From Myxococcales bacterium (GTDB taxonomy: Bacteria; Myxococcota_A; Polyangia; Polyangiales; DASUME01): a stretch of DNA of 64,000 nucleotides. The DNA is taken from contig JASGJH010000001.1 in NCBI GenBank assembly GCA_047601445.1, positions 7,424,001 through 7,488,000 on the forward strand, in the 5' to 3' direction. The notes beneath the pieces were generated by a model, which saw nothing but the letters and a program-made list of their open reading frames with translations, was not told the DNA's origin and ran no database searches. A program made the translations under genes and the position numbers. Numbering within the stretch: position 1 is the stretch's first letter; every line of letters begins with the position of its first letter. Positions 2,302-36,848 of the stretch are shown here, piece after piece.

Positions 2302-2317
2302 GTCTATCTTAATGGAC
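2302..2317. promoter_or_regulatory. Putative operator box 1 (GTCTATCTTAATGGAC)
   Basis: 70 bp upstream of the mdtA ATG. Exact reverse complement of box 3 over 18 bp including the GT flank. Confidence 0.8.
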
Positions 2318-2369
2318 TGGTGTCCGCAACCCGATGCGACGACGCGTCCGGGGCCCGAAAGACGGCGCG

Positions 2370-4230
2370 TCAGGCCTCGAGCGGCCGGGCGCCCTCGCTC
2401 GTTGTGCTCCCTGCGCCGGCGGCGCGCGGGAGGTCTCTTGCTCCGCCGTAGCGGCGGGCCACGATGCGACCGTCCTGGATCGTCAGGATCTGATCGGCGT
2501 TCTCGATCGTGCTCAAACGGTGGGCGATGACGAAGCTGGTGCGCCCCCGCATGAGGCGCTGCATGGCCTCCTGAATGTGACGCTCGGTGCGCGTGTCGAT
2601 ACTGCTGGTGGCCTCGTCGAGGATCAGGATGGCCGGATCGGCCAGAATGGCCCGCGCGATGGCCAACATCTGCCGTTGCCCGTGGCTCGAAATTGCCGCC
2701 GCGTTCGTGGAGCAACGTGTCGTAGCCGAGCGGAAGACGTTCGATGAATGCGGCGGCGTTCGCAAGGCGGGCGGCTGTCAGGACCTCCTCGTCCGTCGCC
2801 TCGAGCCGGCCATAGCGAATGTTGTCGCGCACCGTGCCGCTGAACAGGAAAGTGTCCTGCAGCACGATGCCGAGCTGACGCCGGAGGTCCTCTTTGCGGT
2901 ACTCACGCAGATCCACGCCGTCGACCACGATGCGTCCGGCATTGATCTCGTAGAAGCGCGTGAGCAAGTTGACGATGGTGGTCTTGCCGGCGCCGGTGGG
3001 GCCGATCAGCGCGACGGTCTGCCCCGCGCGTGCGTGCAGCGTGACATCCTTCAGCACCGGCACATCCCGGCGATAGGCAAAGTTGACGCCCTCGAAGCGC
3101 ACATCGCCGCGAATCCGTCGGCGCGTGTCCATCTGCTCGGCATCTATCTCGGCGGTCTCGTCAATGGTCTCGAAGACACGCTCGGCCCCTGCCATGGCGG
3201 CTTGGAACGCGTGGTACAGGTTCGCGACCTCGTTGAGGGGCCTACCGAACTGGCGGGTGTAGTTGATGAAGGTCGCGATGGTCCCCACGCTGATCGATCC
3301 GCGGATCGCCAGCAGTCCGCCGACTCCGGCCACGATGGCGAGGGCCGCGTGATTCACGGTATTCATCATGGGGCCGGTGAAGCCGCTCACGGTCTGCGCC
3401 CGGATCGCGGTCTCGCGATAGTCCGCTTCGATGGCCTCGAAGCGCGTCGTGACCGCGGGCTCTTGCCCGTAGGCCTTGATCACTTTCTGTCCGCCGATGG
3501 TCTCCTCGACGAAGCCGTACAAGCGACCGAGGGCGCTCTGTTGTTCTCGGTAGCGGATGTGGCTCTTTTCGGCGAGCCAGCGGTTGAGCCCGATGGTGAG
3601 ACCAGCCACGGTGGTCACCGCGAGCACGCCGAGCACGGGGTGGAGCACCGCCATGGTGATGGCGATGGCGGCCGTAGTCAGTCCCCCCGATACGAGCTGT
3701 GAGACGCTGTTGCTCAGCACCTGATTGATGCTCTCGACATCGCTGGTGAGGCGCGCCATCAACTCGCCGTGCACTCTGCGGTCGAAGAACTCGAGCGGAA
3801 GCTGCTGAAGCTTGTGGAAGAGATCCGCGCGAATATCCCGCATGGTTCGCTGGGCCGCCCCCGCCATCAGATGACTCTGGGCGAGGTTCAAGAGCGCGCT
3901 GCTCGCATAGACGCCGACCATGAGGAGTGCGAGCTGAGCGAGGCCGCCGAGCTGGCGCGGCACGATGTGCCGATCGATGGCGCGGCGCAGTAGAAGTGGA
4001 CCCGACAAGTCCAGCGCAACGATCGCGGCAACTAGGCACCCCGTGATGGTAAGGGGCGCGCGTTGGCGCCCAAGATAGCTCCATAGTCGGCGCAGGGTCG
4101 CCCTGGTGTGCTGAGGACGCTCCTCGCCCCGCGCTCGTGCGCGGTTTCCCCGCCCACCTCCGAGTCCGCGGACAGGGGGCAGCGGGGGCGACGACGCCGT
4201 GGAGTGGCGGGGGCCGTCAGGGGCGGACAT
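2370..4230 (-). CDS. Type IV ABC transporter permease/ATPase, consensus subunit (TM288-like), frameshifted near 2690
   Basis: Starts MSAPDGPR at 4230. TMD, then Walker A GPTGAGKT. After ERGGN the frame shifts to [27 protein letters not shown] (track ORF 2370..2765). Confidence 0.88.
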
Positions 4231-35716: not shown

Positions 35717-36826
35717 ATGGAAAACGCCCTCACCTCGTCCATCCTCGAAACCTACTTGGCGTCGTGGGCTCAACGCGAGCGTGACGCCGTCGAGGCCGGG
35801 GAGAGCCGGCTGCCAGGCCCGACGGTACGCGAGTTCCGCAGCTCGGGCGTGCTGGCGCTGCCGGTACCGCAGGCGCTCGGCGGCGCGGGCCAGGACCTGT
35901 GGCGCACCAGCGAGCTCATCCGGAACGTCGCCCGCGAGGCTCCCTCCACGGCCTTGTGCTTGGCGATGCCGCTCGGCAACGCGGGCAACAGCCGGCTGGT
36001 GCCAGAGTGCGTGTCACCCTCGCTGCGCGGCCAGCTCGAGCAAGGGCGACGCTGGATCGCGCGCAAGGCACTTTCGGGCGCCATCCTGGCGGTGGCCAAC
36101 TCCGAGCCCGGCAGCGGGGGCGACTTGAGCGCGACCCGCACGGTGGCGCGGCGCGATGGGGAGGGCGCACTGCGCCTCTCGGGGGAGAAGAGCTTTGCCA
36201 CGCTCGGCCAGGACGCGGACTACTTCCTGTGCAGCGCGCGCACCGAGGACGGCAGTATCGACGCCTTCTTCGTGCCGCGGAAGGCACCGGGCGTGCGGGT
36301 CTTCGACGACTGGGATGCCCTCGGGATGCGCGCCACTGCGAGCGTGGGGCTTAGCCTCGAAGATGTGCGCGCGGAAACGGTGTTCGTCTATCCTGGTGCT
36401 ATCAGCGGGATCAGCGCACGTCACTGGTCCACGTTGCTGCTGGCAGCGTTGTTCGTTGGCATCGGGGAGGGCGCGCTGGCGGCGGCCGTGGAGTGCGCAC
36501 CCAAGACCTCGGAGTGGGCGCGCAGCAGCCTGGCGGAGTGCGCCCTGCAGCTCGACGCGGCTCACGGCTTCGTGGAGCACCTCGCTCGCTCCGAGCAGAT
36601 CCCGTGTTCGAGCCGCTACGTCGAACGCTGTCGGCGCGCCAAGACCTTCGCTGCGCAGGTCGCCCTCGAGTGCGCCACGCGGGCCGTCGTAGTGGCGGGC
36701 GGACGCAGCTATCGACCCCAGCATCCGTTGGCGCGCTTGCTGCTCGACGCTGTGGCGGGACCATTGCTGCGACCGCCATTGCCGCAAGCCATGGACGGAA
36801 TTGCTGCGCAGCTCTTCGGCTCCTGA
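35717..36826 (+). CDS. Acyl-CoA dehydrogenase-fold flavoprotein (possible DszC/SfnB-like monooxygenase)
   Basis: Starts MENALTSS. PQALGGAG, ANSEPGSG, LSGEKSFAT, DWDALGMRATAS, VAGGRSY. Confidence 0.82.
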   Translation: MENALTSSILETYLASWAQRERDAVEAGESRLPGPTVREFRSSGVLALPVPQALGGAGQDLWRTSELIRNVAREAPSTALCLAMPLGNAGNSRLVPECVSPSLRGQLEQGRRWIARKALSGAILAVANSEPGSGGDLSATRTVARRDGEGALRLSGEKSFATLGQDADYFLCSARTEDGSIDAFFVPRKAPGVRVFDDWDALGMRATASVGLSLEDVRAETVFVYPGAISGISARHWSTLLLAALFVGIGEGALAAAVECAPKTSEWARSSLAECALQLDAAHGFVEHLARSEQIPCSSRYVERCRRAKTFAAQVALECATRAVVVAGGRSYRPQHPLARLLLDAVAGPLLRPPLPQAMDGIAAQLFGS

Positions 36827-36832
36827 TGCCGT

Positions 36833-36848
36833 GTCTATAAAAAGAGAC
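36833..36848. promoter_or_regulatory. Putative operator box 12 (GTCTATAAAAAGAGAC, with GT/AC flanks)
   Basis: 43 bp upstream of ATG 36891; immediately before a -35-like TTGACT at 36856-36861. Confidence 0.78.

Follow-up and report, generated by a model that had tools for sequence, protein, structure and literature searches.

A 16-bp palindromic box of the form GTCY-N8-RGAC occurs twelve times in a 64,000-nucleotide stretch of a Myxococcales genome (contig JASGJH010000001.1, positions 7,424,001 to 7,488,000; here called the window). It is probably, as judged from sequence, the operator of a SutR-like XRE-cupin protein, XRE2, whose gene lies 14 kb upstream of the window and which would repress organosulfur-scavenging genes until sulfur is short. 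The parts of this reading differ in strength. The box is almost certainly a real operator, and the genes that it marks very likely constitute a sulfur-starvation regulon. XRE2 is likely to be the protein that binds the box and, if it is, there is a good chance that it acts as a repressor. A palindromic operator with an XRE-cupin sulfur regulator is already known; the box motif, a genome-wide starvation regulon in this lineage and a sulfur-free chaperonin are new.

The box in the window and across the genome

Window positions are counted from its first letter. The genome of the window (9.5 Mb) is referred to as G000, and coordinates prefixed G000:C1 are those of the contig. All twelve boxes of the initial annotation were found again at their positions; eleven match GTCY-N8-RGAC exactly, and the single terminal mismatch reported is that of the box at 7962, at its first base. 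The distances to start codons, given previously as 16–109 bp, are 15–108 bp on remeasurement, and boxes 1 and 3 are indeed identical over 18 bp, as reverse complements. The claim that no box occurs after 36.9 kb holds for the form with an AT-rich core but not for the bare pattern, since an exact match at 60926 has a GC-rich core.

The window contains 12 exact matches to the pattern, compared with 5.3 ± 2.1 expected, and none of 100 shuffles gets to 12. Across the genome, the loose pattern is not enriched (338 matches with the 8-bp spacer versus 350–504 with spacers of 6, 7, 9 or 10 bp). The selectivity is carried by the AT-rich core. A score matrix trained on the 12 window boxes, applied with a site threshold of 16 bits, finds 27 strong sites in G000. 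The score distribution is bimodal, with a gap below these sites, and after retraining of the matrix the next site scores 15.0 bits. Twenty-six sites reach at least 18 bits, of which 23 are intergenic in a genome that is 83% coding by the gene caller; the remaining three overlap the end of a gene or a frame fused by a frameshift. A matrix built from the boxes of related genomes returns 26 of the 27 sites as its top 26, a recovery that is not independent because those boxes had been picked with the G000 matrix.

Pooling the 27 sites with 72 boxes from relatives (99 boxes, 198 flanks) gives the consensus G-T-C-Y-W-B-Y-A-T-R-V-W-R-G-A-C. The outer GTC and GAC are near-invariant (97–100%), and the weakest columns are positions 6 and 11. 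In 27 of the 198 flanks a third GTCY half-site lies 4 bp past the box, and in nine it lies 5 bp past it; other offsets account for 0–4 flanks. This third half-site suggests tandem dimers. Complete pairs of boxes with a 20-bp period are present in two relatives (G215 and G304). Only 3 of 198 flanks hold a full second box (6 bits or more) at 20 bp, and tandem binding therefore rests mainly on the third half-site.

It is hardly credible that the boxes are chance AT-rich promoter sequences, or mobile-element or recombination sites. The missing genome-wide enrichment of the loose pattern does favour chance, and the box core resembles a −10 hexamer. Against this stand the bimodal scores, the placement of 16 of the 27 sites within 56 kb, the intergenic position of the top sites, the same palindrome before sulfur genes in three families, and the fact that the box picks out methionine-free copies of GroEL (see below). 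The initial annotation had proposed one dimeric regulator of sulfur-starvation genes, acting at a site unlike the degenerate LysR-type site. Both proposals are supported, the former by gene content, by the depletion of methionine (Met) and cysteine (Cys), and by recurrence of the box in three families.

An organosulfur island and a probable genome-wide regulon

The regulon had been put at ~37 kb. It extends further: the organosulfur island (G000:C1:7406593-7462027) measures about 55 kb, with two-thirds of it in the window (1..38027) and its left 17 kb outside, in locus L001, while the 27 sites are spread over the whole genome. Sixteen are in the island, four form a second cluster among SsuD-like genes at 1386–1392 kb of G000, and seven are scattered, including one before an ssuA-like gene and one before a DoxX-glutathione S-transferase (GST) pair. 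It had also been stated that no regulator gene lies in the island. Two XRE-cupin genes and a sigma-54 activator gene are in fact found 14–17 kb to the left of the window. Features of the island are as follows.

L001 5396-6052 (G000:C1:7409396-7410052), − strand: XRE2, the proposed binder
L001 4761-5303, + strand: XRE1, the second XRE-cupin gene, convergent with XRE2
L001 2593-4369, − strand: sigma-54 activator gene and ssuE
G000:7410217, 7415520, 7415658 and 7418795: the four island boxes outside the window
Box 1, 2302..2317: 69 bp before an HlyD-type fusion protein gene (2232-1021, −), the leader of two RND permease genes; an extra half-site lies 4 bp off on each side
Box 2, 6054..6069: 82 bp before an ABC exporter gene (5971-4217, −)
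Box 3, 6133..6148: 84 bp before an SsuA/NMT1-related binding-protein gene (6233-7351, +)
Box 4, 7962..7977 (first-base mismatch): 24 bp before a small P-loop protein gene (7937-7392, −)
Box 5, 15438..15453: 60 bp before an NtaA/DmoA-type monooxygenase gene (15377-14030, −; apparent frameshift near 14670), which heads a run that includes two ABC exporters and glmS; the box overlaps the stop codon of the upstream gene
Box 6, 16630..16645: between divergent SsuA-related binding-protein genes (16567-15443, −; 16723-17826, +), the right-hand one followed by a Yej-like ABC transporter
Box 7, 23805..23820: 66 bp before a TonB-dependent receptor gene (23887-26514, +) and a TolC-like gene
Box 8, 30816..30831: 54 bp before an ssuA-ssuC-ssuB-like transporter operon (30761-27977, −)
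Box 9, 32071..32086: 108 bp before an SsuA-related binding-protein gene (31962-30898, −)
Box 10, 32658..32673: 15 bp before a small unannotated gene (32642-32140, −) with an apparent frameshift
Box 11, 33385..33400: between a GST gene (33326-32700, −) and an operon (33496-36826, +) of an ABC exporter and an SfnB/DszC-like gene
Box 12, 36833..36848: 42 bp before an SsuD-like monooxygenase gene (36891-38027, +)

The genes behind the boxes are mostly those that a sulfur-starvation regulon requires, namely genes for organosulfur uptake and desulfurisation, as judged by family matches that mostly fall below cut-off. The island encodes SsuE, monooxygenases of the SsuD, SfnB and NtaA types, GST and a nitroreductase. 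Its transport genes comprise an ssuABC-like transporter, five SsuA-related proteins, a Yej-like transporter, and ABC and RND exporters, and a TonB receptor is accompanied by TonB-ExbBD-like genes. SsuE and one NtaA/DmoA model clear the curated cut-off, whereas most of the matches, to related families, stay below it.

The presence of a sigma-54 activator gene beside ssuE raises the alternative that the box is an enhancer of this SfnR-like protein, for which we see very little chance. Close matches to the activator occur in a congener with two boxes (G004) and not in two congeners with 18 and 26 (G005 and G006). A −24/−12-like pattern is found near only three of the 27 boxes, and many boxes are too near a start codon for an enhancer. 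In G003, a 22.9-bit box directly precedes an activator gene, which is thus a likely target.

Sulfur-lean proteins and a GroEL without methionine

The sulfur function was tested INDEPENDENTLY of gene names. The 37 island proteins contain 1.6% Met+Cys, compared with a median of 2.89% in 37-gene windows, and no such window more than 80 kb from the island is as low.

The box also precedes extra groES-groEL operons in two related genomes, G304 and G278. We read 27 GroEL copies in ten genomes, some with upstream regions cut short by contig ends. The three copies without internal Met or Cys have boxes of 23.5–27 bits, while upstream of the other 24, which contain 9–25 Met, the score is 5.7 bits at most. 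The three form one clade, and their groES partners are likewise free of Met and Cys. In an out-of-sample check of 80 metagenome loci, the single Met-free GroEL has a box of 26.2 bits and the rest score no more than 10.5 bits. The Met/Cys-free copies are located as follows.

L197 (G304:C29): groEL copy in G304
L194 (G304:C49): groEL copy in G304
L193 (G278:C9): groEL copy in G278
L290: groEL copy on a metagenome contig

Among the 120 nearest homologues, 12 have 0–1 internal Met and the other 108 have 10–14. Because the copies probably share one origin, the boxed Met-free GroEL counts as one event seen four times. Together with the Met/Cys depletion of the island, these copies independently support the proposed sulfur-starvation role, and the protein itself is probably a sulfur-sparing chaperonin. 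Sulfur-sparing isoforms, that is, sulfur-poor versions of abundant proteins, are made by cyanobacteria and yeast, and the Met-free GroEL resembles them in this respect. No sulfur-free GroEL paralogue was found described in the literature searched, which left subscription papers and preprint supplements outside.

XRE2 as the candidate regulator

XRE2 consists of an N-terminal helix-turn-helix (HTH) domain (Pfam HTH_3, 51 bits) and a C-terminal cupin domain (Cupin_2, 48.6 bits), both above cut-off. The closest structure by sequence (35% identity) is 1Y9Q, which is also the best fold match of an alignment-based model with a predicted local distance difference test score (pLDDT) of 80. Residues H157, E163, H197, Y199 and Y215 are invariant in 50 XRE2 homologues and align to the same residues in 1Y9Q; they would line the cupin pocket.

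A check for an autoregulated transcription factor gene carrying the box returned XRE2, which has a 21.4-bit box 164 bp upstream. The 18 other regulator genes of G000 that were scanned (six GntR, three Rrf2, four TetR, one LysR, three XRE and the activator) score 2.3 bits or less; of all 19, XRE2 alone has a strong box upstream. An upstream box of at least 6 bits is present at 15 of 43 XRE2 orthologues (G000 included) and at none of 20 paralogues. A de novo motif search in 37 orthologue upstream regions from outside the genus yields a 16-bp palindrome, nTtCgctATagcGaAn, in the same register as the box, with a log-likelihood of 112 compared with 21–29 for three shuffles and 48 for the paralogues.

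At most loci read, XRE2 orthologues have sulfur-scavenging or cys genes as neighbours, and at some they have unrelated genes. In other families, the neighbours are usually cysC/sulfite reductase/cysH genes and an ABC transporter. Most of nine loci from three families (L074-L082; f10, f16, f17) flank the orthologue with a cysC/sulfite reductase/cysH operon on one side and an ABC transporter or cysG-like gene on the other, probably the ancestral arrangement. Weak boxes, some 20 bp apart, lie over the orthologue's own start in these loci.

Co-occurrence of box and candidate regulator

Boxes were counted across genomes with a strict pattern, which has 20 matches in G000, all within the 27 sites. 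Within the genus, four further genomes with an XRE2 orthologue have 6, 17, 18 and 26 matches, compared with 1, 2, 1, 1 and 3 in five congeners that lack it. One of the latter, G004, contains an ssuD/sfnB/activator cluster without a box in 20 kb.

The order sample comprised 301 genomes, with orthology set at E 1e-55 or better and ten candidates scored per genome; its tallies include one unpublished genome, G299, on which no other result rests. An orthologue is carried by 82 of the 301. Six genomes, from three families, have at least 13 strict matches, and all six are among those 82. One of them, G109, is the sole orthologue carrier among the 14 genomes of its family and the only one there with more than four matches (13). 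None of the 251 genomes of a phylum sample, except G000, exceeds eight. The boxes read in G109, G278, G304, G215 and G245 are mostly intergenic, and the genes behind them include GST pairs, NtaA-type, aldolase-like, nitroreductase and TonB-system genes. The strict boxes of G109 and G304 lie on contigs other than that of the regulator.

Comparison with SutR and other regulators

E. coli SutR (YdcN) was reportedly described by Yamamoto in 2015 as an XRE-cupin regulator of sulfur utilisation. XRE2 shares with it the HTH_3-cupin architecture (34% identity over 182 residues), a site before its own gene and a link to sulfur, and several XRE2 homologues are labelled "regulator of sulfur utilization" by JGI. 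Chromatin immunoprecipitation-exonuclease (ChIP-exo) peaks of SutR were placed with shifts of +1976 and +777 bp, which we take to separate the versions of the E. coli sequence; for the caiF and mltD peaks no shift is required. Placed in this way, the strongest peak in the part of the SutR table used here (PMC8464067) centres on GTGCGTTATAGCGTAC. It is at SutR's own gene and has a signal of 1345, the others being about 20 or less among the 27 sites listed. The next four peaks by strength among these sites lie over CTGCGCAATAACAGTC, GTACGCCATAACGCTT, AGCCGTTATAACGGTC and GTTCGTTATAACGCTG. These five listed sequences are imperfect 16-bp palindromes with a YATR centre in four, most with the outer T or A of the box, and they are in register with the de novo Polyangiales motif, differing from the box at positions 3–5. 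The box thus appears to work like a SutR-family operator.

There are also clear differences. The SutR half-sites read G-T-S-C-G instead of GTCYW. SutR has one dominant peak among its 27 listed sites (PMC8464067), whereas 27 strong sites cover ssu/sfn/nta-type genes here, and its divergent ydcO-type transporter neighbour is not seen at the XRE2 loci read. In a quick tree, the Polyangiales XRE2 proteins form a separate clade (94% by the SH-like approximate likelihood ratio test, SH-aLRT), with SutR as a long branch outside it at a weak node. XRE2 is thus SutR-like, though not necessarily a SutR orthologue. In the sections used of two further papers (PMC5210515, PMC6094552), SutR is merely listed as a sulfur regulator, with 15 targets from SELEX (systematic evolution of ligands by exponential enrichment).

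The P. aeruginosa XRE-cupins ErfA, PsdR and PauR are described, in the sections of PMC7901475 available to us, as promoter-occluding repressors. They and 1Y9Q resemble the proposed system in domain order, palindromic sites, promoter occlusion (as proposed here) and the cupin pocket, which in the V. cholerae structure 1Y9Q holds D-methionine (same sections of PMC7901475). According to the same sections, these proteins are local repressors with 1–12 sites at amino-acid, peptide or polyamine genes, whereas a genome-wide starvation regulon is proposed here. The local regulon typical of XRE-cupins is not seen in G000, where 16 of the 27 sites are local and 11 elsewhere.

The sulfate-starvation response of Pseudomonas (PMC12581299, in part) and E. 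coli, controlled by the CysB/Cbl and SfnR systems, has in common with the island SsuD/SsuE/SsuABC-like, SfnB-like and redox targets, as well as sulfur-poor proteins. The box differs from CysB/Cbl in being a strict 16-bp palindrome, probably of a repressor, rather than the site of a LysR activator, and core cys/sulfate operons are unboxed in G000; it differs from the SfnR system in that an SfnR-like gene is itself boxed (G003). Among actinobacterial XRE motifs, cluster 22 has the same 16-bp core length, GT/AC ends and YATR centre, but its inner half-site is TCG/CGA rather than CYW/WRG and it comes from another phylum; no entry fitting the box was found among the catalogue matches listed (PMC12565409, in part). 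The motif and a Polyangiales sulfur regulon were not found described in the literature searched, which had the limits given above for GroEL. Corynebacterium McbR (TetR family) and Bacillus/Staphylococcus CymR (Rrf2 family) are sulfur repressors. Both resemble the proposed regulator as global repressors released by sulfur shortage and differ from it in being TetR and Rrf2 proteins, not XRE-cupins.

Weighing XRE2 against other binders

Several observations weigh against XRE2 as the regulator of these genes. The box before XRE2 is shared with a divergent aldolase-like gene, whose start is 23 bp away and nearer to it. A 6-bit box is missing directly upstream of 28 of the 43 orthologues, including those of G002, G005 and G006, and the de novo motif coincides in part with start codons and ribosome-binding sites. 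No evident sulfur gene lies downstream of five of the 27 G000 sites (37389, 3653838, 4036217, 8460815 and 9364512). A check of cys genes was negative in G000: cysC, cysDN, the cysteine synthases (cysK) and the sulfate ABC operon (cysPUA) have no box, the best score within 3 kb upstream of core cys operons being at most 5.4 bits, compared with a null 95th percentile of 7.4. In a search for a −35 element at a fixed spacing from the box, the TTG triplet occurs at a 17-bp spacer from the box core in 5 of 48 boxes (0 of 48 when reversed), and at a 12-bp spacer in 6 of 48. The SutR operator scores only −3.8 bits on the box matrix, with 2.4% of symmetric column shuffles as high, and is thus a relative rather than the same motif; the second spacer palindrome scores 7.9.

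As for co-occurrence, of the 82 genomes that carry the orthologue, 76 stay below 13 strict matches. A control with the pattern reversed gives up to 11 matches in the order sample and up to 20 in the phylum sample, so that raw match counts alone are weak, and related genomes are not independent, for which reason no p-value is claimed. GST and nitroreductase turned up in no genome without the orthologue. Because target genes come and go with the regulator, co-occurrence shows a module and not who binds. A direct upstream box is present at only one of six GST orthologues and two of eight nitroreductase matches; three more boxes in this set are at operon distance, and three regions are truncated.

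The strongest rival is a paralogous XRE-cupin, either as the binder itself (XRE1, the copy at G000:3967201, or a clade linked to encapsulin/cysteine desulfurase genes) or in a heteromer with XRE2. The recognition helices of such paralogues are similar to that of XRE2, they occur in most box-rich genomes, and one in G215 has an 18.8-bit box upstream. We nevertheless regard this as unlikely. In G304 (99% complete, 19 matches), a paralogue query returns two matches only, both from the XRE2 clade; four genomes with a paralogue and no XRE2 match (G022, G048, G051 and G055) have 0–2 strict matches; and XRE1 stands on a long branch, with a helix that is degenerate.

The initial annotation had named GntR, Rrf2 and TetR proteins as candidates acting in trans. 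None of these proposals is supported, and binding by any of them (the Rrf2 protein being CymR-like) is very unlikely. GntR operators have a conserved central GT-N-TA-N-AC core, and the ideal box core resembles the GntR core cited in that annotation; however, the corresponding G and C at the centre of the box are its least conserved columns (40%, 0.34 bit; 99 boxes). None of the six GntR genes of G000 has an upstream box, 25 GntR loci of five box-rich genomes have none nearby (7.7 bits at best), and none of the five G000 GntRs tested, out of six, is closely matched in every one of these five genomes. An Rrf2 gene does precede cysK in G000, but it has no box, nor have the other two; all nine congeners carry the cysK-linked Rrf2, box-rich and box-poor alike, and searches of G278 and G304 did not find it. 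One box, at G000:9367068, has a TetR gene next to it; none of the four TetR genes scanned in G000 has a box upstream, and this TetR, the only one profiled, was found in just two congeners among 14 genomes, both box-poor. XRE2 remains the preferred binder.

Proposed mechanism

If XRE2 is the binder, the two HTH domains of a dimer would read the GTCY and RGAC half-sites across the AT-rich centre, and a second dimer could load 20 bp away on the same face of the helix. Bound XRE2 would block the promoter or the early transcript, which is proposed because 14 of 48 oriented boxes are no more than 30 bp from the start codon and because the P. aeruginosa XRE-cupins treated in the sections used of PMC7901475 occlude promoters. 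A metabolite that signals sulfur sufficiency would occupy the cupin pocket and hold XRE2 on DNA as a co-repressor. Met, Cys or a derivative is our guess, based on the invariant pocket residues and on the D-methionine in the 1Y9Q pocket (PMC7901475, same sections). On sulfur starvation, the ligand would be lost, XRE2 released and the regulon turned on.

That XRE2 binds the box and instead activates, or acts in both ways, seems improbable. SutR is annotated as a dual regulator in E. coli, and 18 of the 48 oriented boxes lie 76–250 bp from the start codon, which leaves room for activation. The 14 boxes close to the start, and two that overlap the called start, speak against an activator, as do the P. 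aeruginosa family members tested, which are repressors in the sections of PMC7901475 used here.

A wider generalisation, which we consider evenly balanced between right and wrong, is that in several Polyangiales lineages a SutR-type XRE-cupin, ancestrally placed by the sulfate-reduction operon, is the master sulfur-starvation repressor, replacing CysB/Cbl. It would read GTCY-N8-RGAC as tandem dimers, sense a sulfur amino acid, sit above SfnR-like activators and release a sulfur-sparing proteome that includes GroEL-GroES without internal Met or Cys.

If repression by XRE2 is confirmed, the regulator and operator of sulfur starvation would be named for a large, mostly uncultured group of soil myxobacteria, and an XRE-cupin, from a family described as local repressors, would act genome-wide; in related genomes it would also control a chaperonin without internal sulfur amino acids. 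The strict motif allows sulfur-starvation genes to be listed from sequence alone, and with it unannotated binding proteins, aldolase-like proteins, exporters and monooxygenases receive a functional label. Sulfur-free paralogues come to light as well, among which the Met-less GroEL would be a direct test of whether the conserved methionines of GroEL are dispensable.

Other features of the island and related loci

A paralogous XRE-cupin gene with a box leads cysK, serine acetyltransferase, encapsulin-like and desulfurase-like genes (named by resemblance) in G215 (L181, C23), and a similar locus in G278 (L216, C34) also has boxes; an encapsulin sulfur-storage operon may be part of the regulon in these two genomes. 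At G000:C1:2093198-2096931 (L208), an Rrf2 gene leads cysK, ThiF/MoeB-like, sulfur-carrier-like and cysM-like genes without a box, probably a separate CymR-like circuit.

Region G000:C1:30200-41000 (L008), in which the gene caller finds almost nothing, contains one box at 37389 and a Met-Glu-Thr repeat open reading frame at 39682, and may be foreign or misassembled DNA. A peroxiredoxin gene near G000:3653838 was considered as a box target and rejected because the box lies beyond its stop codon. The region G000:7030000-7050000 contains no box.

Two diverged class II aldolase-like genes (L001 6256-6933 and L002 12895-13587) are each directly behind a box, and a related gene is also boxed in G278; these are possible sulfur-scavenging enzymes. 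The five paralogous SsuA/NMT1-related proteins (window 6233-7351, 15443-16567, 16723-17826 and 30898-31962; L001 6948-8042) have a common N-terminal motif and 0–1 internal Met, and most lack an adjacent permease. Instead of transporters, these proteins could be hydrolases that share the binding-protein fold.

The run that box 5 leads, with its monooxygenase and two ABC exporters, ends in a second glmS (8048-9880). This gene shares 42% identity with the copy at G000:8573788, and its product is only mildly poorer in sulfur (10 Met and 5 Cys versus 13 and 9). Apparent single frameshifts are present in an ABC exporter (about 2400-2900), the NtaA-type monooxygenase (about 14670) and the small gene behind box 10 (about 32340); these may be assembly indels rather than true pseudogenes.

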